A DNA stretch of 27,553 nt from IMG/VR virus record IMGVR_UViG_3300029653_000015. The stretch is one strand, 5' to 3'. The notes beneath the pieces are model-generated. The model made no database searches. It had not been told where the DNA came from and saw only the letters and a program-made list of their open reading frames with translations. This document shows positions 2,081 through 18,297 of the stretch, one piece after another. The stretch is from a virus (taxonomy: Duplodnaviria > Heunggongvirae > Uroviricota > Caudoviricetes). Position numbers and translations under genes: made by a program. Within the stretch, counting starts at the first letter, position 1; each line of letters starts with the position of its first letter.

Positions 2081-3073
2081 ATGGGTTTTTCATCAGCCCG
2101 AAATTTGGGAAGGGACATATCGGCAGGATTTTCCCCACCACGTCGCATGCCGATTTCGGAGGCTGTTAAAAAATTCATGCGTGTTCCCAAGGGGGCTGGT
2201 AACTCGGTGCCATGGGATCCTGAACTGACACCCTACATCATTGAGCCCATGAACTGCCTGGCATCGCGTGAATACGATGCGGTGATTTTTGTTGGTCCTG
2301 CGCGAACAGGGAAGACCATTGGTCTGATCGATGGATGGATTGTCTATACCATCGTTTGCGATCCTTCGGACATGCTCGTTGTGCAGATGACCGAAGATAA
2401 GGCCCGCGAGCATTCTAAAAAGCGCCTCGACAGAACGTTCAGAAGCAGTGCTGCGGTAAAGAAAAGAATGAGTCCACGTCGTAACGACAATAATGTCCAT
2501 GATAAGACGTTCAGGGATGGCTCGTTCCTTAAAATTGGTTGGCCCTCGGTCAACATTATGTCGTCGTCGGATTACCGGTTTGTCGCCTTAACCGATTACG
2601 ACCGTTTTCCGGAGAATATCGACAGCGAGGGTGATGGTTTCTCCCTGGCCTCAAAACGTACCACCACATTTATGTCCGCCGGGATGACTCTGGTGGAGAG
2701 CTCGCCGGGACGTGACATCTGCGATAGCAAATGGCGACGTAAGTCGCCTCATGAAGCGCCACCGACGACTGGTATTCTTTCCCTTTACAATCGTGGTGAC
2801 CGCCGCCGCTGGTACTGGCCATGTCCGCACTGCGGTGAATATTTTCAGCCAGCTATGGATGCCATGACCGGCTACCGTAATGAACCGGATCCCTTTAAAG
2901 CCAGTGAGGCGGCGTATCTACTTTGCCCGCACTGCAGCGGCATTATCACTGCGGAGAAAAAGCGTGAGCTCAATAGTGCAGGAGTCTGGTTGCGTGAAGG
3001 TCAGGTCATTGATCGTAACGGCAACGTTTCCGGTGAACCGCGCCGCTCCCGTATCGCCAGTTTCTGGATGTAG
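2081..3073 (+). CDS. terminase large subunit, N-terminal ATPase part (gene interrupted by the inserted element)
   Basis: AGGAGG RBS. Walker A-like GPARTGKT. Zinc-finger-like CPHCGEYF and CPHCSG. Ends ...RIASFWM then TAG exactly at the insertion junction. Continues in frame with 13496..14608 if the insert is removed. Confidence 0.8.
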   Translation: MGFSSARNLGRDISAGFSPPRRMPISEAVKKFMRVPKGAGNSVPWDPELTPYIIEPMNCLASREYDAVIFVGPARTGKTIGLIDGWIVYTIVCDPSDMLVVQMTEDKAREHSKKRLDRTFRSSAAVKKRMSPRRNDNNVHDKTFRDGSFLKIGWPSVNIMSSSDYRFVALTDYDRFPENIDSEGDGFSLASKRTTTFMSAGMTLVESSPGRDICDSKWRRKSPHEAPPTTGILSLYNRGDRRRWYWPCPHCGEYFQPAMDAMTGYRNEPDPFKASEAAYLLCPHCSGIITAEKKRELNSAGVWLREGQVIDRNGNVSGEPRRSRIASFWM

Positions 3074-3234
3074 GGTACATTTCTTACCTGTTTTTATGTT
3101 CTGGTGTCGTTTTATAGTCTTTTCAATGAGTTGTGATTTTTTGAGTTTCCTCTCTTTACTTGATAATGAGTTAGTTTATCGCTTGTTATCGACTTGAATG
3201 GACTACATGACGGACTAAAAAATGAGGGCGATAG

Positions 3235-4473
3235 ATGTCGGTAAAGCCATTAACCGTGACTGAAGTTAAGGGGATGAAACCACGTGAAAGGGACTATGCC
3301 GTTTATGATGGGTTCGGTTTATTGCTGAATGTGAGTAAAGCAGGTGGGAAAGTGTGGCGTTTCCGTTATAGCCATCCGATAACGAAGAAACGGCAGACAT
3401 ACACGATAGGGCGTTTTCCTGAATTCTCACTCGCGGAAGCACGGGAAGTACGTGATGAACTTCGGCGAATGATTGCACGTGGAGTTGATCCAGTGACAGA
3501 GAAGAAAAATCGTAAAATTGAGATGGCGCTAAAAAATCTACAGACATTTGAAGTCGTTGCTAATGCATGGTTCGCTTTTAAAAAAGGATCGGAGTTGAGG
3601 AAACCTACGTTGTATAATATCGAATATGAAGTATATAAGTATCTTGTTCCTTTCTTTGGTAAATACAGAATAGATAAAATTACAGCACCATTAGCAATTA
3701 AGGCACTGGATGCCGTATCTGATAAAAACGCGCTGCAAAAAAAATTAATATCAAGATTAAATGAAATCATGAATTACGCTGTAAATTGTGGCGCATTGAA
3801 AATAAATCCATTGCTTAAAATAAAGACAGCATTCACTGGAAAGAAAAATAAATTATTAGCCGCGTTACCTATAGAAAGATTACCTGAATTTCTGAGCTGG
3901 TGGGATAGTGTGCCTCATAAGTATCAAATAGCTCACAATGCGCTTTTATTCCAGATATTGACAATGGTAAGGCCCGGAGAGGCGATCCAGGCAGAGTGGT
4001 CCGAGATTGATTTTGATTCTGGCTTGTGGATTATCCCCGCGCATAAAATGAAATGCCATCGTGAACATGTTGTGCCTCTCTCATCACAGGCTATTAGAAT
4101 ACTAAGAACAATGCAGGAAATAAAAAGAGGGCGTTATATATTTTTTTCCTCCAGAACAAAAGATGCTCCTATGGGGAGGAATACTATCAATACCCCAATT
4201 GCTGCCAGTAAGTTCAAAGGGATTGTAACGTTACATGGTTTTCGTTCGATGTGGAGTACACTTTTAAATGAGGAGGGTTTTAACCCTGATGTTATTGAGG
4301 CTGCATTAGCACATAAAAGTGGTGATAAAATAAGAGATATTTATAATAGAACTACTTATTTAGAACAACGCAAAATTATGATGCAATGGGTAGGCGATTT
4401 TTTTGATGAGGCGAGAAAAGGGGTAATTAATAGATCCTGTGGTAAGAAAGGTTTGAGAATAGTAAATGGTTGA
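3235..4473 (+). CDS. int: tyrosine integrase, P4-type (N-terminal arm-binding domain)
   Basis: 412 aa. N-terminal LTVTEVKGMKPRERDYAVYDGFGLLLNVSKAGGKVWRFRY is typical of the P4-integrase arm-binding domain. C-terminal catalytic region has LHGFRSMWST (His/Arg) and a tyrosine near the end (RDIYNRTTY). GAGGG RBS. AT-rich codon usage differs from the flanking prophage. Confidence 0.9.
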   Translation: MSVKPLTVTEVKGMKPRERDYAVYDGFGLLLNVSKAGGKVWRFRYSHPITKKRQTYTIGRFPEFSLAEAREVRDELRRMIARGVDPVTEKKNRKIEMALKNLQTFEVVANAWFAFKKGSELRKPTLYNIEYEVYKYLVPFFGKYRIDKITAPLAIKALDAVSDKNALQKKLISRLNEIMNYAVNCGALKINPLLKIKTAFTGKKNKLLAALPIERLPEFLSWWDSVPHKYQIAHNALLFQILTMVRPGEAIQAEWSEIDFDSGLWIIPAHKMKCHREHVVPLSSQAIRILRTMQEIKRGRYIFFSSRTKDAPMGRNTINTPIAASKFKGIVTLHGFRSMWSTLLNEEGFNPDVIEAALAHKSGDKIRDIYNRTTYLEQRKIMMQWVGDFFDEARKGVINRSCGKKGLRIVNG

Positions 4474-4485
4474 GGAGTTCAGCAA

Positions 4486-4689
4486 ATGAATACCAATGAA
4501 GATATTTTATTTACTAAAGACGTAATGAAAATTTTGCGCTATGGGGCAATGAGCGCATTCATCAATTTCTGGAAAGATGAAAGTAATGGTTTTCCTCAAC
4601 CGTTCAGAATTGGGCGGCGGCATACCTGGCACCGCAGAGATGTAGAGGCATGGTTAGATAAACAACGAGAACAGGCCAATCCCCACTAA
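4486..4689 (+). CDS. AlpA/excisionase-family small DNA-binding protein
   Basis: 67-aa ORF immediately downstream of int on the same strand, the usual alpA position in Gram-negative satellites. Central segment with W...RRHTWHRRDVEAWL resembles AlpA-type HTH proteins. Family call from memory. Confidence 0.55.
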   Translation: MNTNEDILFTKDVMKILRYGAMSAFINFWKDESNGFPQPFRIGRRHTWHRRDVEAWLDKQREQANPH

Positions 4690-4703
4690 TAATATCTTTC
4701 ATA

Positions 4704-4729
4704 CCCCGCACGCAATGCGGGGTTTTTTG
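4704..4729 (+). terminator. rho-independent terminator after the int/alpA unit
   Basis: Hairpin CCCCGCA cgcaa TGCGGGG followed by TTTTTT. Confidence 0.6.
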
Positions 4730-4748
4730 TATGTGAGGTAAAAAAGCG

Positions 4749-5330
4749 ATGAATAAAAATATTGCCGTGACTGGCAAGGGTGACGCACGTCCAGTGAAAA
4801 AATTCTGTGATATTCGTGATCTGGTCGTTCTGCGCTTTGATGGCGTGGATGTTCGTGTGGTGTATCTGAACGGCGATCCGTGGTTTGTTGCAAAGGATGT
4901 TTGTGCAGCTCTGGAAATAAGCAACTCACGCGATGCTCTAAAAGCCCTGGATGTGGATGAAAAGAATACTGTCGCTTTAAGCTACGGTATTCGCGGAAAC
5001 CCAAATCATAGCGTCGTTTCTGAATCCGGTTTTTACAAGCTGATCGCCAGAAGTCGCAAAGCTGTTACTCCCGGCACGTTCGCCCATCGTTTCAGTAACT
5101 GGGTATTCAGAAATGTGATATCGGGTATCAGAAAAACGGGGGCTTATGGTATCCCGTGGGGCGCATTACAGGATTTTTCTCGCCGTAAAGAGCAATATCA
5201 GATAAGTGCCAGCGAGAAGGGGAGGGAGCTACAGGCCTGTAAGCGCAAAAAACGTGAACTGGAGGAAGAAGAAAAAAGGCTGATACGTGAATATCAGCCT
5301 GAGTTTTACTTTGGTGAGCGTATTCAGTAA
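4749..5330 (+). CDS. Bro-N domain protein (antirepressor-like)
   Basis: N-terminal segment VVYLNGDPWFVAKDVCAALEISNSRDALKALD matches the Bro-N/KilA-N-like signature. C-terminal part is charged and coiled-coil-like. Confidence 0.65.
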   Translation: MNKNIAVTGKGDARPVKKFCDIRDLVVLRFDGVDVRVVYLNGDPWFVAKDVCAALEISNSRDALKALDVDEKNTVALSYGIRGNPNHSVVSESGFYKLIARSRKAVTPGTFAHRFSNWVFRNVISGIRKTGAYGIPWGALQDFSRRKEQYQISASEKGRELQACKRKKRELEEEEKRLIREYQPEFYFGERIQ

Positions 5331-5938
5331 CCACTCGCAGTGCTGATTATACGGTACATTGTGTTGACCGGGAAACCCACCAGCAAGGCAAAATCTTCTG
5401 CTAAAAAATGATATATGACCAGTCGTCCGGAAAGCATGAAATTTTACAAAAATGGAAAATGAAGATTTTTATTGTGCTGGTGGGTAAAAACAAAAAGCGC
5501 CCCGTTGCCGGAGCGCCCTTGCGAACAATTAACCTGCTGCGAAAAAAATGGATCAGTGCAGGGGAATTATATCAACCGTGTGGTGAAGCGCCACTATTGC
5601 CGGATAACAGGCAAAACAAAGGCGACCGCAAAAGAGTCGCCAGTGGGAACAAGGGAAAACAAAAGCATCACCAACAATGCCACATTTGCGGCTGGTGGGC
5701 AATGCAATCAGTCTGGTTCAGTTCGTTGCCATACCTGCAATGAGCGCTTTTCCCTGTACTCTTTAAGGAATTGCTCAAGGGCAAAAGCACATGGCGCGAA
5801 TCTTTCTGATTCATGCTCTATCTTTCTGCGTCGTCTTTTCCGTGTCGGTGATAATGTTTTGGTCAATTCTTTATCGGTCATTGTGTTGTCCTGCATAGCA
5901 ATGCGCCGTAATACCTTACACCACGGCGCTGGTGATGG

Positions 5939-6118
5939 TTATTCCTGCTCTTTGGCCTTTCGGCGCTGGCGGCGTTTGATCTCACCTTCAAGCGCCGAAA
6001 CGATAAATTGCCCAGTGCTTTCGCCTTCTTCCTTTAAATTTTCTACAGCGTCAGCTATTGCATGGGGTACTCGTGCCTCAAGTTTTTTGGATTTTCCATT
6101 AACTGCTTTCGTTGCCAT
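5939..6118 (-). CDS. ribbon-helix-helix (Arc/CopG-like) transcriptional regulator, putative repressor of the rightward operon
   Basis: 59-aa product MATKAVNGKSKKLEARVPHAIADAVENLKEEGESTGQFIVSALEGEIKRR... has an RHH-like pattern. AAGGAAA lies 7 nt upstream of the ATG. Transcribed divergently from a promoter/operator region with three GTGGCTGACA repeats. The longer upstream extension of the ORF was rejected because it would run through that region. Confidence 0.5.
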   Translation of the reverse strand: MATKAVNGKSKKLEARVPHAIADAVENLKEEGESTGQFIVSALEGEIKRRQRRKAKEQE

Positions 6119-6139
6119 ATCTGATTTCCTTGTTATTAG

Positions 6140-6222
6140 GTGGCTGACAGTATACACACAAGAAAATAGAAAAACACTATTGACGTGGCTGACACCTGTC
6201 ACTAGTATAGTGGCTGACACCT
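6140..6222 (+). promoter_or_regulatory. rightward sigma70-like promoter (TTGACG 6180..6185, 17-bp spacer, TAGTAT 6203..6208) overlapped by three GTGGCTGACA operator-like repeats (6140, 6186, 6211)
   Basis: Seen directly in sequence. Repeat 2 fills the spacer and repeat 3 sits just downstream of the -10, the classic placement for repressor operators. Confidence 0.5.
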
Positions 6223-6317
6223 TTATTAAGGTAATCGATGAAAAGACAAAGCCCGCAGGTGCTACCAACACCAACGGGCTTCTAACCACCAACGATAGCA
6301 GAAGTATCGAGGCAGCT

Positions 6318-6521
6318 ATGAGAAATTATACCAGACACCCGCAAGGGCGGGACTCGTACAACCTGAATAAATACATCTGGCGTTTTATCGCCCTGAGCAC
6401 GGCACAACCGCGCGTGATTACCATTGAGGCCACCAGCGAACAGGAAGCGCGTCAGCAATCTCCTGATGGCTGCGTGATGGTATTCGCTGCCCGTATTCGC
6501 CAGGGGGAACACCATGATTAA
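6318..6521 (+). CDS. small protein, possibly Icd-like (host cell-division inhibitor family); first gene of the rightward operon
   Basis: 67-aa ORF beginning just downstream of the promoter. WRFIAL...PRVITIEATSEQEAR...CVMVFAARI resembles Icd-like proteins of P4-like elements, recalled from memory. Its stop overlaps the next start (ATGA). Confidence 0.4.
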   Translation: MRNYTRHPQGRDSYNLNKYIWRFIALSTAQPRVITIEATSEQEARQQSPDGCVMVFAARIRQGEHHD

Positions 6522-6726
6522 CCTGTCACTTACCGACCTTAACCGCGTTCAGTTTCGTGAGAAATTTACCGGGCAGCTACTGGTCAATGTGGATAAAGGT
6601 CGCGTGGTGTGTAATTACCACCTGCCAGATGAAGCCATTGTCGCAACAAGGGAATCATTACAGGAACTCGCAGAACGTGCCGGAATGATTAACGCGAATA
6701 TTCAGGGGGTGAGACATGTGCAATAA
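6514..6726 (+). CDS. hypothetical small protein (paralogue of 6945..7157)
   Basis: 70 aa, translationally coupled to neighbours. Shares a G-x-V-L-V-x-L-x-K-G-x-V-x-C pattern with the 6945 ORF. Confidence 0.5.
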   Translation: MINLSLTDLNRVQFREKFTGQLLVNVDKGRVVCNYHLPDEAIVATRESLQELAERAGMINANIQGVRHVQ

Positions 6727-6952
6727 CACCCGTCCGGACGCAGCCGCCGAAGCAATCAGAACGCTGATGAATGCGCTGATTGATATTTCTGTTATCGCAG
6801 ACAAGGCGCATAAGCACGCCACCAGTGAAGCAGAATATGCCGGGGCTTTCGTTCCTCACTTACTGGCTGTTATGCAATTTAGTGCTGATATGGCGCTGAA
6901 TGAGGCCAGCAAAATTATCATGGCTGATATGGAGGTGGTGAGCCATGAATAA
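6716..6952 (+). CDS. hypothetical protein
   Basis: 78 aa, GGGGTGAG RBS, overlaps both neighbours in an operon-like arrangement. Confidence 0.5.
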   Translation: MCNNTRPDAAAEAIRTLMNALIDISVIADKAHKHATSEAEYAGAFVPHLLAVMQFSADMALNEASKIIMADMEVVSHE

Positions 6953-7157
6953 TCATGAAGCGCATTTACCTGTAGTGCTGAATGTGCCGTCAGATTATAC
7001 GGGGCGCGTACTGGTGTATCTGGAAAAAGGCTGGGTTAAATGCCAGTGCCGTTTAATGGAAAACGAATTTATCAGCACTCTTGCGGGATTTTCTGAAATG
7101 CTCACTAAATCGGGTGTTAGTGCAGACCAGTTACGCGGGGGCGATTATGCGAAATAA
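6945..7157 (+). CDS. hypothetical small protein (paralogue of 6514..6726)
   Basis: 70 aa, GGTGGTGAG RBS. Same length and shared motif with the 6514 ORF. Confidence 0.5.
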   Translation: MNNHEAHLPVVLNVPSDYTGRVLVYLEKGWVKCQCRLMENEFISTLAGFSEMLTKSGVSADQLRGGDYAK

Positions 7158-7365
7158 ACATGATATTGAAGACCTGGCATTTGAAGCCCTGCACTCTGCG
7201 AAAAAAATCAGGGAAGTCGTCAATATGTGGATGAACAGCCTTAGCACCGATAAATCAGATAGCAGAGAGGAAATTCTTATTTCTTTGTTGTTAGATCTGG
7301 CCAATACACAGGTTTCTCTGACATCTGATATTGAACTCTCCGCTAAAAAGCTGCCTCTGGAGTAA
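7147..7365 (+). CDS. hypothetical protein
   Basis: 72 aa from ATG 7147, with GGGGGCG upstream and overlapping the previous stop. The ORF track's earlier start at 7081 would overlap the upstream gene. Confidence 0.45.
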   Translation: MRNKHDIEDLAFEALHSAKKIREVVNMWMNSLSTDKSDSREEILISLLLDLANTQVSLTSDIELSAKKLPLE

Positions 7366-7371
7366 AAAAAC

Positions 7372-7671
7372 ATGAAAAAGAAAAATTCTGGCTTTACTGC
7401 CAGCGGCCCCGCTCGGCCTGAAATCCGCCCCGGCGATATTTTCCGGGATAACTACGGCGGCACGGTAACGATTAAAAGCGCGGCGGGACGGTGCGTTACT
7501 TACCGCCGTGATGGGTACAGCTATGACTGCGTGATGCCTGTTTATCAGTTCCGGCGTGATTTTTCGCTGGTACAGGCCACACCACGCAGACAGCCCACCA
7601 GCAACGCAAAGGCACAGGCAAATATTCAGAAAATGAAAAACATGATTAACGCATTCAGGGGCACAAAATGA
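7372..7671 (+). CDS. hypothetical protein
   Basis: 99 aa. Its stop overlaps the start of the replication gene (ATGA). Confidence 0.5.
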   Translation: MKKKNSGFTASGPARPEIRPGDIFRDNYGGTVTIKSAAGRCVTYRRDGYSYDCVMPVYQFRRDFSLVQATPRRQPTSNAKAQANIQKMKNMINAFRGTK

Positions 7672-9083
7672 AACTGGCACCGAACTTAAAAAAACAGCCA
7701 CACGACAAAATGACCGAAGTCATTATTTTTGCGGGTAGTGATGCCTGGGCGCACGCGAAACAATGGCAGGAGCAGGACGGGCGACTTGCTGGCGACAATG
7801 TTCCGCCTGTATGGCTGGGAGACAGCCAGCTTGACGAACTGGCAGACCTGAAAATTATCGACGATGGTCGCTATTGTGTCCGGCTGTACAAGGCAGGCCA
7901 CATCAAGCCGTCAAATATTAATGCTATCGGGCAAAAGCTGGCGGCGGCAGGTGTACGGGATGCGAATTATTACCCTGAGGGAATGCACAGCCAGAAGCTG
8001 GAGAACTGGCACGACTACCTGCAACGGATCCGCGAACAGGCAGAGCGCGGGGAAATACTTACTGACGAGCAATACAGCCAGCGAAAAACCACGCTACCAA
8101 TGAGCATTGGATCTGCAGGGTACGACACACAGCTTGATTATGTCGTTAAGGGCGTGATTCCGGCTAATTCATTGTGTAGCACATACGGCGCGAGCGGTTC
8201 CTATAAATCATTCCTCGCGTGTTCCTGGGCGTGTCATGTTGCCACGGGTCGCCACTGGGGAGGCCGCAGGGTGGCGCATGGTTCGGTGATGTATGTCGTC
8301 GGTGAAGGTGGCATTGGTGTCCCTCGTCGTATCAAAGCATGGGAAATCGTTAATGATGAACGGGTGAAAAATCTGTACCTGGTAAACCGCCCGATTTTTC
8401 CGGCGGTCCCGCTTGATGTTGATGAAATGGTCATCGCTTCCCGTCAGGTTGAACGGGAAACGGGTAAACCGGTACGCATGATTATTCTGGATACGCTGGC
8501 GCGTTGCTTTGGCGGTAATGATGAAAATGACGCGCGGGATATGGGGGCGTTTATCCGTGGATGTGACGAACTGAAACGGCGCACAGGGGCCACGGTGCTG
8601 GTGGTTCACCATTCCGGCAAGGATGAAACAAAGGGGGCGCGTGGTTCCAGTGCATTTCGTGCATCTCTGGACGCTGAATACCGTATTCGCCGTGAAGGTG
8701 CGGACAGTGAAGCCCTGGTTATCTCCTGCACCAAAATGAAAGACGCAGAGGAACTGAAAGAGGCCGCATACGATTTACGCGTGGTGGAGCTTTTTACCGA
8801 CACTGACGGGGAGTTAATCACGTCGCTGGTGGTTGTGGATAAGCCGCGCCCACCTGTTGAACTGGAGCGCATCGAGGAGGCCGGGAACAAGACGGAAAAT
8901 CACGCTGCGCTATGGCAGTGCATCAGAACGCGAACAGCACACGGGGAGGCGTGCACTATAGCCCTTCTCCGCGACGATATGAAAAAGCTGGGGTATGAAA
9001 TGAAAAACTTCCGGCGCTGGCTGTACAAGCTGGAAAGCGACGGCGTAATCGCTATTGACGGTGATTATGTGCGCCCACTGTAA
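7668..9083 (+). CDS. replication protein: RecA-fold ATPase (RepA/AAA_25-like helicase or primase-associated ATPase)
   Basis: 471 aa. Deviant Walker A YGASGSYKSF, Walker B-like MIILDTLAR, and VLVVHHSGKD typical of RepA-like helicases. Followed directly by an iteron array. The N-terminal ~170 aa is unassigned. Confidence 0.65.
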   Translation: MKLAPNLKKQPHDKMTEVIIFAGSDAWAHAKQWQEQDGRLAGDNVPPVWLGDSQLDELADLKIIDDGRYCVRLYKAGHIKPSNINAIGQKLAAAGVRDANYYPEGMHSQKLENWHDYLQRIREQAERGEILTDEQYSQRKTTLPMSIGSAGYDTQLDYVVKGVIPANSLCSTYGASGSYKSFLACSWACHVATGRHWGGRRVAHGSVMYVVGEGGIGVPRRIKAWEIVNDERVKNLYLVNRPIFPAVPLDVDEMVIASRQVERETGKPVRMIILDTLARCFGGNDENDARDMGAFIRGCDELKRRTGATVLVVHHSGKDETKGARGSSAFRASLDAEYRIRREGADSEALVISCTKMKDAEELKEAAYDLRVVELFTDTDGELITSLVVVDKPRPPVELERIEEAGNKTENHAALWQCIRTRTAHGEACTIALLRDDMKKLGYEMKNFRRWLYKLESDGVIAIDGDYVRPL

Positions 9084-16338: not shown

Positions 16339-18297
16339 ATGCAGGCTGGTCACCAGAGTGACGCGGATATTTATATTTATGACGAGATTGGTTTCTGGGG
16401 TGTTACAGCGAAGCAGTTTATCAGTGATCTGAATGCACTGGGCGATATCACCCACATTAATCTCCATATCAATTCACCGGGTGGCGATGTCTTTGAAGGC
16501 ATCGCCATTTTTAATGCGCTGAAAACACATGGTGCATCCATTACCGTTTATGTCGACGGTGTGGCGGCGTCAATGGCGTCGGTCATTGCGATGGTGGGAA
16601 ACCCGGTCATTATGCCGGAAAACACCTTCATGATGATTCATAAACCATTTGGCTTTACGGGCGGTGATGCGGAGGACATGCGCACCTATGCCGACCTGCT
16701 CGATAAGGTTGAGGCGGTTCTGTTACCCGCTTATGCACAGAAAACCGGGAAAACCACCGATGAAATTGCTGCCATGCTGGCGGATGAGACCTGGATGTCC
16801 GGTGCCGAATGTCTGGCACATGGATTTGCTGATCAGGTGACGCCAGCCGTTAAGGCAATGGCATGTATTCAGTCAAAACGTACAGAGGAATTTAAAAAGA
16901 TGCCGGAATCCATTCGAAACATGATTACTCCGCCACGCAACAGTGCTCCACGCGTACAGGATGATGAACCTGCAGCCTCCCGGACGCCAGTGCAGGCAGC
17001 AGCACCCGTGGTGGATGAAAACAGTATCCGTGCGCAGGTACTGGCAGAGCAAAAAGCGCGTGTAAACGGTATTAATGATCTGTTTGCCATGTTTGGCGGG
17101 CGTTATCAGACGCTGCAGGCTCAGTGTCTTGCCGATCCTGAATGTTCGCTGGAGCAGGCCCGCGAAAAGCTGTTGAACGAGATGGGGCGCGAGTCCACGC
17201 CATCCAATAAAAATACCCCGGCTCATATTTATGCCGGTAACGGTAATTTTGTGGGGGACGGGATCCGCCAGGCGCTGATGGCGCGTGCCGGATTTGAAAA
17301 AACCGAACGTGATAATGTCTACAACGGGATGACCCTGCGTGAATATGCCCGTATGTCACTGACTGAACGGGGTATTGGGGTTTCCAGTTATAACCCGATG
17401 CAGATGGTCGGTGCGGCGTTCACACACAGTACGTCTGACTTCGGTAATATTCTGCTGGATGTTGCAAACAAAGCCATTCTGCAGGGCTGGGAAGATGCCC
17501 CTGAAACCTATGAACAGTGGACGCGGAAAGGTCAGTTGTCTGATTTTAAAATTGCCCATCGTGTGGGTATGGGGGGCTTCAGTGCTCTGCGTCAGGTGCG
17601 TGAAGGGGCGGAATATAAATACGTCACCACCGGAGATAAACAGGCCACTATTGCACTGGCGACCTATGGCGAGCTGTTCAGTATCACCCGTCAGGCCATT
17701 ATCAATGATGATCTGAATATGCTGACCGATGTCCCGATGAAACTGGGCCGTGCGGCGAAATCCACTATTGCCGATCTGGTTTATGCCATTCTGACGTCTA
17801 ACCCGAAAATCTCCACAGATAATGTAAGTCTGTTCGATAAAGCGAAACATGCAAACGTACTGGAGAGCGCTGCAATGGACGTGGCATCGCTGGATAAAGC
17901 CCGTCAGTTGATGCGCGTTCAGAAAGAGGGGGAGCGTCATCTGAATATTCGTCCTGCGTTCGTACTGGTACCGACGGCGATGGAGTCTGTTGCTAACCAG
18001 GTCATTCGCTCCTCAAGTGTCAAGGGGGCTGACATTAACGCCGGTATTATTAACCCGGTGAAAGATTTTGCGACCGTTATTGCAGAGCCTCGTCTTGATG
18101 ATAACAGCCAGACCACCTTCTACCTGGCTGCGTCAAAAGGCTCCGATACGATTGAAGTGGCTTATCTCAACGGTGTGGATACGCCATATATTGATCAGAT
18201 GGAGGGCTTCAGTGTGGATGGCGTGACAACGAAAGTGCGTATTGACGCCGGTGTCGCGCCAGTTGATCACCGTGGTCTGGTGAAATGTACGGCGTAA
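16339..18297 (+). CDS. prohead protease (ClpP-like)/major capsid protein fusion, helper copy
   Basis: 652 aa from ATG 16339. ClpP-like motifs GVAASMASV and FMMIHKPFG. A proline/alanine-rich linker (PRNSAPRVQDDEPAASRTPVQAAAPVVDE) precedes a capsid-like C-terminal domain. The ORF track's earlier start at 16078 overlaps the portal gene. Confidence 0.8.
   Translation: MQAGHQSDADIYIYDEIGFWGVTAKQFISDLNALGDITHINLHINSPGGDVFEGIAIFNALKTHGASITVYVDGVAASMASVIAMVGNPVIMPENTFMMIHKPFGFTGGDAEDMRTYADLLDKVEAVLLPAYAQKTGKTTDEIAAMLADETWMSGAECLAHGFADQVTPAVKAMACIQSKRTEEFKKMPESIRNMITPPRNSAPRVQDDEPAASRTPVQAAAPVVDENSIRAQVLAEQKARVNGINDLFAMFGGRYQTLQAQCLADPECSLEQAREKLLNEMGRESTPSNKNTPAHIYAGNGNFVGDGIRQALMARAGFEKTERDNVYNGMTLREYARMSLTERGIGVSSYNPMQMVGAAFTHSTSDFGNILLDVANKAILQGWEDAPETYEQWTRKGQLSDFKIAHRVGMGGFSALRQVREGAEYKYVTTGDKQATIALATYGELFSITRQAIINDDLNMLTDVPMKLGRAAKSTIADLVYAILTSNPKISTDNVSLFDKAKHANVLESAAMDVASLDKARQLMRVQKEGERHLNIRPAFVLVPTAMESVANQVIRSSSVKGADINAGIINPVKDFATVIAEPRLDDNSQTTFYLAASKGSDTIEVAYLNGVDTPYIDQMEGFSVDGVTTKVRIDAGVAPVDHRGLVKCTA

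Follow-up and report, generated by a model that had tools for sequence, protein, structure and literature searches.

The stretch analyzed here, IMG/VR record IMGVR_UViG_3300029653_000015 (27,553 nucleotides of a virus of the Caudoviricetes, hereafter the window), contains a phage satellite embedded in a lambdoid prophage. Within the satellite, a gene for a 59-aa protein of the ribbon-helix-helix (RHH) type faces, across an intergenic region with three copies of a short repeat, a rightward promoter (P_R) followed by a leader and by an operon that begins with an Icd-like gene and includes a replication gene. The repeats, treated below as putative operators O1, O2 and O3, and the remaining features of the element are listed in Table 1.

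Table 1. Features of the control region, the replication operon and the surrounding satellite (positions in the window; aa, amino acids; ORF, open reading frame; HTH, helix-turn-helix; P_L, leftward promoter)
Feature	Position	Strand	Description
P4-type integrase gene	3235-4473		Within the insert
AlpA-like HTH gene	4486-4689	+	HTH_17 17.8 bits (below cut-off), phrog_66 1e-6; weak assignment
Strong intrinsic terminator	4703-4723	+	Directly past the AlpA-like gene; 8-bp GC-rich stem and T run
Bro-N protein gene	4749-5330		Within the insert, between the AlpA-like and RHH genes
Terminator-like hairpins	5641-5621, 5520-5493	-	Past the 62-aa ORF
62-aa basic ORF	5708-5896	-	phrog_21027; downstream of the RHH gene, same strand
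RHH regulator gene	5939-6118	-	59 aa, YlcI/YnfO family, MATKAVNGKSKKLEARVPHAIADAVENLKEEGESTGQFIVSALEGEIKRRQRRKAKEQE
Shine-Dalgarno AAGGA	6127-6131	-	8 nt ahead of the RHH gene ATG
O1	6140-6150		GTGGCTGACAG; 10/11 match to O2/O3; overlaps the P_L start region
P_L -10, TATACT	6149-6154	-	Putative; serves the RHH gene; its downstream edge is overlapped by O1 by one base
A/T-rich tract	6156-6179		Between P_L and P_R
P_L -35 candidate, GTGTTT	6172-6177	-	Weak
P_R	6180-6208	+	-35 TTGACG (6180-6185), 17-nt spacer, -10 TAGTAT (6203-6208)
O2	6185-6195		GTGGCTGACAC; begins at the last -35 base, fills the P_R spacer
O3	6210-6220		GTGGCTGACAC; begins 2 nt past the -10, over the predicted P_R start site
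Small hairpin ACCTT-TATT-AAGGT	6219-6232	+	Predicted 5' end of the P_R transcript; centroid structure; weakly tested
Leader hairpin AAGCCCG..GGTG-loop-CACC..CGGGCTT	6249-6281	+	Conserved
Single-stranded motif TCTAACCACC	6281-6290	+	Conserved; after the first leader hairpin
Second leader hairpin CGATA...TATCG	6293-6312	+	Adjoins GAGG, the Shine-Dalgarno of the Icd-like gene
Icd-like gene	6318-6521	+	First of the P_R operon; 67 aa; NCBIfam NF033153 1e-19; also PGAP in L001, L002 and L080
Small overlapping ORFs	6514-6726, 6716-6952, 6945-7157, 7147-7365	+	P_R operon
DUF4222 gene	7372-7671	+	P_R operon
RepA/AAA_25 helicase gene	7668-9083	+	P_R operon
SSB gene	9533-9955	+	Probable P_R operon member
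ClpP-protease/major-capsid fusion gene	10589-12505		Within the insert

The divergent control region and its 59-aa regulator

Three exact copies of GTGGCTGACA were found on the plus strand by reading the sequence and searching the window (6140-6149, 6185-6194 and 6210-6219), and no other exact copy is present on either strand of the whole 27.5 kb. The initial annotation had located the first of them correctly and the other two, given as 6186 and 6211, one base too far downstream. When one or two mismatches were allowed, 35 copies were counted elsewhere in the window against 26 ± 5.5 expected; additional operators elsewhere in the window were dropped for this lack of enrichment. The start-to-start distances are 45 from O1 to O2 and 25 from O2 to O3, and a repeat search placed O2 and O3 inside a 23-nt imperfect direct repeat, CACTA-N5-GTGGCTGACACCT (6175-6197 and 6200-6222). 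Judging by its conserved bases, the full operator is about 11-13 bp long and has the form (G)GTG-N5-CAC(C).

P_R is a near-consensus promoter and was the sole sigma-70-like match returned by a promoter consensus scan of positions 5600-6800. Sequence and scan agreed with the earlier proposal on the placement of two of the repeats, the second lying in the spacer and the third just past the -10. The accompanying description of all three as covering this promoter holds for O2 and O3, whereas the first repeat belongs to the leftward promoter of the RHH gene itself (P_L), a position which implies autoregulation. P_L was postulated because of its location and because its -10 is conserved: the segment containing it, CAGTATAC, is nearly invariant in the consensus of relatives from all specificity classes (see below). 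A LexA box at CAGTATAC was ruled out, no CTG being found at the required spacing.

The ribbon-helix-helix pattern previously noted in the divergent 59-aa ORF was supported by an AlphaFold2 model built with 28 homologues (mean pLDDT 86.8), in which an extended segment (residues 10-17) is followed by two helices (19-28 and 35-58), i.e. a strand-helix-helix arrangement of about 45 residues. The RHH proteins listed beside this model were AmrZ (5.2), SvtR, ORF56, VapB, omega, Arc (4.4), TacA, ParD, PutA, NikR and TraY. In the alignment, hydrophobic residues (L13, A15, V17) alternate along the beta-strand with polar ones, namely the variable K12 and E14 and the invariant R16; the turn G32-E-S-T35 is nearly invariant and the C-terminal EIKRRQR motif is invariant. 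Longer regulator alleles (101-123 aa; L080 3545-3850, and L060) carry a helical insertion within this last motif, and keep the three-operator layout with a core of their own, TGTAAG.

The protein was assigned to the YlcI/YnfO family (NCBIfam NF041551, 61.9 bits against a cut-off of 30) and to phrog_949 (6e-23), a group of unknown function which also includes YlcI of Escherichia coli K-12. No Pfam match was obtained for it, and PF13132 (DUF3950), which matches K-12 YlcI at 2e-20, gave none even at E ≤ 10. The family is small, with 91 clusters at the 50% identity level in a set of 1.84 billion representatives, and is essentially restricted to Enterobacterales; a tblastn search of 50,697 phage records with the window protein gave no match. 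K-12 YlcI/YnfO (DUF3950, phrog_949) and the window protein have in common the NCBIfam family, the PHROG and the N-terminal M-S/A-T-K...R.P pattern, yet YlcI is only 22% identical to the window protein and the DUF3950 match is found in YlcI alone. The ylcI gene (L078 6252-6446) is found in the cryptic prophage DLP12, a short distance upstream of cos and nohD. Since no comparable operator array was seen upstream of K-12 ylcI, where the region is cos, this gene may have another role than its counterparts in the satellites.

Conservation and covariation among relatives

A set of 75 loci encoding relatives of the RHH protein was taken from contigs of one genome per species (62 non-redundant loci were compared), and included Xenorhabdus, Pectobacterium, Yersinia, Serratia, Proteus, Morganella, Dickeya, Hafnia, Kosakonia and other genera. 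Gene context was uniform, with an integrase and often a Bro gene upstream, and an Icd-like gene followed by a primase or RepA gene behind the divergent promoter. The opposition of the RHH gene to an operon promoter carrying the repeats, as first described for the window, was recovered in relatives of many genera. Distances were also maintained: measured from the RHH ATG in 57 loci, O1 lies at +22, the -35 (TTGA) at +62 and O2 at +67, while O1 and the -35 are separated by CAGTATAC and then an A-rich tract, and TTGA is invariant at the -35. The distance between O2 and O3 is 22-28 or 35 bp, the orientation of O3 may be direct or inverted, and in most loci in which O3 adjoins the -10 a hairpin like that at 6219-6232 follows it.

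The three sites of a locus resemble one another far more often than shuffled sequence does. O3 was equal to O2 at no more than one mismatch of 11 in 57 of the 62 loci (10 of 12,400 shuffles), and O1 matched at no more than two mismatches in 53 of the 62 (86 of 12,400 shuffles), being in nearly all classes the 10-of-11 variant with CAG for CAC. The flanks (G)GTG...CAC(C) are constant, and the 5-nt core varies between elements and is identical at the three sites within one. About 20 operator cores follow the sequence of the beta-strand, the three sites changing in concert. For residues 11-16, the pairs include KKLEAR with GCTGA (the class of the window), KRFDVR with TCCGA or TCGGA, LQVSVR with GTGTT, QALKAR and QSLKSR with GGCCA, K/QKMQAR with GAGCA, QKLQAR with GAGTC, QMTTVR with TATTT, QLFTVR with TGTTT, QQLNAR with CGATT, KQVNVR with CTATT, QQIVSR with GCATT, and QTVAAR with TTTAA. 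Mutual information with the operator core peaked at residues 14, 13 and 12 (z = 14.8, 13.3 and 12.9, respectively). The pairing predicted from these data would join K12/L13/E14 with GTGGCTGACAC, and M/T/T at residues 12-14 with GTGTATTTCAC.

Within the KKLEAR class, operator columns were 97-100% identical between E. coli and Xenorhabdus, whereas the other intergenic columns reached 49-62% and the protein residues 68-71%. Taken as a whole, the protein-operator covariation is the strongest non-experimental evidence that the RHH protein binds the repeats.

The combination of RHH gene and operators is not tied to one replication protein. The RHH gene and the intergenic region are 100% identical over 302 nt in L001, a capsid-forming phage-inducible chromosomal island (cf-PICI) at a chromosomal site, and the identical regulator and operators are paired there with a primase and in the window element with a RepA helicase. 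In a variant helper-embedded element (L002, 16376-16480) the three sites are kept, with the first one moved directly upstream of the P_R -35, where it no longer lies beside the leftward -10 and overlaps TTGAAC, a -35 of the leftward promoter.

The RHH allele of the window, together with relatives detectable by blastn, was present in 486 of 5426 complete E. coli genomes (~9%), and diverged alleles are distributed more widely still, across many genera of Enterobacterales. At the nucleotide level the leader-icd segment was present in 1604 of the same 5426 genomes. The two counts suggest a mosaic, as expected for a swappable immunity cassette. Genomes with two to four satellites (L012/L032/L064, L014/L024/L030/L065 and seven others) never carried two of one class; with nine genomes, this exclusion is not significant (P = 0.18), and it is compatible with hetero-immunity.

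Repression of the replication operon, alternatives and known systems

Very probably, the RHH protein controls its own gene and represses the replication operon of the satellite, a PICI of the helper-embedded type (HE-PICI), acting at a pair of divergent promoters with three operators. The protein would read (G)GTG-N5-CAC(C) through its N-terminal beta-strand, presumably with one dimer per site. Occupation of O2, over the -35 and spacer, and of O3, over the start site, would shut off P_R, which is predicted to drive the leader, the Icd-like gene, the small ORFs, the DUF4222 gene, the RepA helicase gene and probably the SSB gene. O1, over the presumed start region of P_L, would provide negative autoregulation of the RHH gene, and its 10-of-11 match is compatible with a weaker, homeostatic control. 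The module would in this way silence the replication operon in the lysogen, and would exist as many hetero-specific 'immunity' alleles.

The sites, their positions, the fold, the covariation of protein and operator and the selective conservation of the sites were established in this analysis, whereas binding, transcription start sites and the sign of regulation were deduced from them, which weighs against the reading just given. The same holds for P_L, which was missed by the promoter consensus scan and has a poor -35 (GTGTTT), and for the closeness of gene and sites: they lie 20-100 bp apart, so that linkage alone explains part of the association. The concerted change of three sites and the operator conservation within the KKLEAR class are for that reason the decisive observations. 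Finally, induction of the model Gram-negative PICIs needs AlpA, and the RHH protein may accordingly not be the decisive switch.

This last objection leads to the most serious alternative, to which we give a probability somewhat short of even: the RHH-operator module is real, but rather than being the master switch suggested initially it damps basal expression of the toxic Icd-like gene and of the replication operon, the decision being taken by AlpA or by late transcription of the helper. AlpA is an essential activator of EcCICFT073 and EcCIEDL933 and is turned on by helper phages (PMC6092414; bioRxiv 10.1101/2022.09.08.507074), an AlpA-like gene is present upstream in this element, and the satellite lies co-oriented within the helper late operon; for HE-PICIs, a passive entry of late transcripts has been suggested (PMC10111431). 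On the other hand, the AlpA-like gene is followed by a strong terminator, and the operon has its own near-consensus promoter under two perfect, strongly selected operators, in a layout typical of primary repressors of the lysogeny type.

The other explanations of the repeats received far lower probabilities. Pairing of the RHH protein, as an antitoxin, with the neighbouring 62-aa ORF, the repeats merely autoregulating the pair, is very unlikely, given that this ORF is not conserved and is replaced in relatives by a convergent Bro-type gene, that the RHH protein lacks a C-terminal toxin-binding extension, and that two of the three sites are on the divergent promoter instead of the RHH promoter. 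Replicon origins, including those of PICIs, carry iterons, and direct repeats near a replication operon might be taken for origin sites of the replication protein. This possibility is judged slightly more remote, as the same repeats accompany two unrelated replication proteins (RepA/AAA_25 in the window and a primase in L001), their core co-varies with the RHH beta-strand, the sites fall exactly at -35, spacer and +1 positions, and PICI origins are found downstream of pri/rep (PMC6092414, PMC10111431). Least probable, with a negligible share, is that the repeats are functionless products of chance or of a recent duplication; O2 and O3 do lie within a 23-nt imperfect duplication, but neither the concerted change of three sites in about 20 classes, nor the excess of operator identity over the intergenic background, nor the rarity of comparable matches in shuffles would be expected from it.

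If the RHH protein represses P_R, repression has to be relieved upon induction, and the simplest route in this element would be transcription from upstream, either helper late or AlpA-dependent. Such transcription would need antitermination or read-through at the terminator at 4703-4723 before it could enter the Bro gene and what follows, and would continue, antisense to the RHH gene, into the operon. An antirepressor would be equally possible, either the Bro-N/Ant-type protein of the satellite or a protein of the helper, the initial annotation having suggested a helper-encoded signal. Genes of the Bro-N or Ant type always occupy the interval between alpA and the RHH gene; no antirepressor candidate was identified in this analysis, and neither L002 nor the helper portion of the window was found to hold an RHH paralogue able to poison the dimer. 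As a third and least favoured candidate, the repressor might simply be absent on entry into a new cell.

A broader generalization can be formulated, although we regard it as unlikely: RHH proteins of the YlcI/YnfO type would be the master repressors, analogous to Stl/Rpr, of many Gram-negative satellites (classical, capsid-forming and helper-embedded PICIs), with at least 20 hetero-immune specificities set by residues 12-14, and their inactivation would couple satellite to helper. Such inactivation could result from antisense transcription, either helper late or driven by AlpA, or from a Bro/Ant-type antirepressor. If true, Gram-positive and Gram-negative PICIs would share one repressor-based logic.

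Known systems offer several points of comparison for the repressor reading. Arc and Mnt, from immI of phage P22, are likewise small RHH repressors with beta-sheet recognition, autoregulation and operators on a divergent promoter pair. Omega of pSM19035 and CopG bind as RHH dimers to repeated short asymmetric sites, direct or inverted, as O3 is in different classes, and repress by occupying the -35/-10 region, as would the window module; the omega heptads are contiguous and belong to a plasmid, whereas sites of the window type are 22-45 bp apart and belong to a satellite. The Stl/Rpr proteins of Gram-positive PICIs (Staphylococcus aureus pathogenicity islands, SaPIs) are encoded divergently from the excision/replication operon, maintain quiescence and occur with many allelic specificities. 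The window gene resembles theirs in being divergent from a replication operon with operators on its promoter, and differs in fold, RHH instead of a Cro/CI-type HTH domain; Stl/Rpr are larger proteins with domains that bind helper antirepressors, whereas the window protein consists of little more than the RHH fold and shows no evident partner domain.

The AlpA-controlled islands EcCICFT073 and EcCIEDL933 share with this element its type and the order int, alpA, bro zone and replication zone, and the RHH-operator module would be an extra layer beyond the AlpA models (PMC6092414) and the HE-PICI paper, in the main text of which neither an RHH protein nor operators are mentioned (PMC10111431). As in P1 immI (C4 RNA-icd-ant) and the CI RNA immunity of P4, an Icd-like gene comes first behind a structured leader and a repressed promoter; in contrast to these systems, Rfam searches recovered no C4, isrK or CI-type RNA, and control here is apparently exerted by a protein.

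In the founding description of Gram-negative PICIs a global repressor was called unclear, and the contrast with the repressor-based Gram-positive PICIs as a mystery (PMC6092414); later cf-PICI and HE-PICI papers described only AlpA, proteins of the Bro network and immunity RNAs. Against that background, the comparative data suggest that the RHH module is a repressor previously unrecognised in Gram-negative phage satellites. It is of a classical kind, known from Arc/Mnt, CopG and omega, in which an RHH protein represses from repeated sites at divergent promoters, and the mechanism is conventional. What appears to be new is a putative function for the YlcI/YnfO family (phrog_949), a role in satellites for which the literature consulted reports no repressor, and a specificity code that can be read from about 20 natural alleles. 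The candidate Gram-negative PICI repressor is thereby defined to the base (protein, three operators, two promoters and specificity code), and the alleles offer, as a natural set, small repressor-operator pairs orthogonal to one another.

The replication operon, its leader and the satellite

Comparison of 37 diverse sequences indicated that the operon has a conserved, structured leader as its 5' untranslated region, which was absent from the initial annotation. The first leader hairpin had 91% of cells paired and compensatory changes in 11 of 12 pairs, and the second helix 97% paired and compensatory changes in 3 of 4 pairs. The covariation score of the leader was 0.312, compared with 0.079 in shuffles (0 of 500 reached the observed value) and at most 0.073 in slid controls. 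Rfam returned no leader family, and no C4, isrK or CI at E ≤ 1 (positions 3000-13600) or E ≤ 10 (6120-6340); the top-scoring match, to SymR and on the other strand, stayed at 23.7 bits, below the gathering score of 61. A 15-codon mini-ORF (6238-6285) was rejected on the grounds that relatives have no ATG.

Homologues of the Icd-like protein were too alike to warrant structure prediction. The PHROGs label of the family (phrog_6196/1743) is 'transcriptional repressor'; should it be correct, the gene that opens the operon would act as a counter-regulator. Two of the small ORFs that follow (6514-6726 and 6945-7157) are paralogues of 70 aa, both in phrog_340 (unknown function). The genes downstream of P_R overlap or abut, and this packed plus-strand array does include RepA, which had been placed in the operon. 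The end of the operon was previously set at this replication gene; given that no plus-strand terminator is predicted after P_R before 10258-10274, the operon probably extends past RepA through the SSB gene to that position. Just downstream of the RepA gene, a near-perfect 40-nt palindrome (9139-9178), which surfaced only as a spurious match to a miRNA family, may be an element of the origin or a bidirectional terminator.

On the other side of the control region, the leftward transcript probably ends at the terminator-like hairpins 5641-5621 and 5520-5493, after the accessory 62-aa ORF. This ORF is missing from nearly all relatives, where the convergent Bro-type gene directly follows the RHH gene; in L001 the counterpart of this region holds, on the opposite strand, a pseudogene remnant according to PGAP.

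The window as a whole corresponds to a lambdoid prophage's late region. It holds Nu1-like, terminase A, portal and protease/capsid genes, and tail genes as far as tape measure, L, K and I. An insert of ~10 kb (about 3100-13400), co-oriented with the late genes, splits the gene of the terminase large subunit, leaving an N part (2081-3073) and a C part (13496-14608) flanked by lambda-like late genes to either side. From its position and gene content the insert is a helper-embedded PICI as in PMC10111431, and it contains all four zones of such elements (int and AlpA, Bro, replication, and late). A search for attL/attR by shared exact words gave only one 11-mer, which was unconvincing. The ClpP-protease/major-capsid fusion gene of the satellite is of the same type as the helper's own gene at 16078-18297, a few kb downstream.

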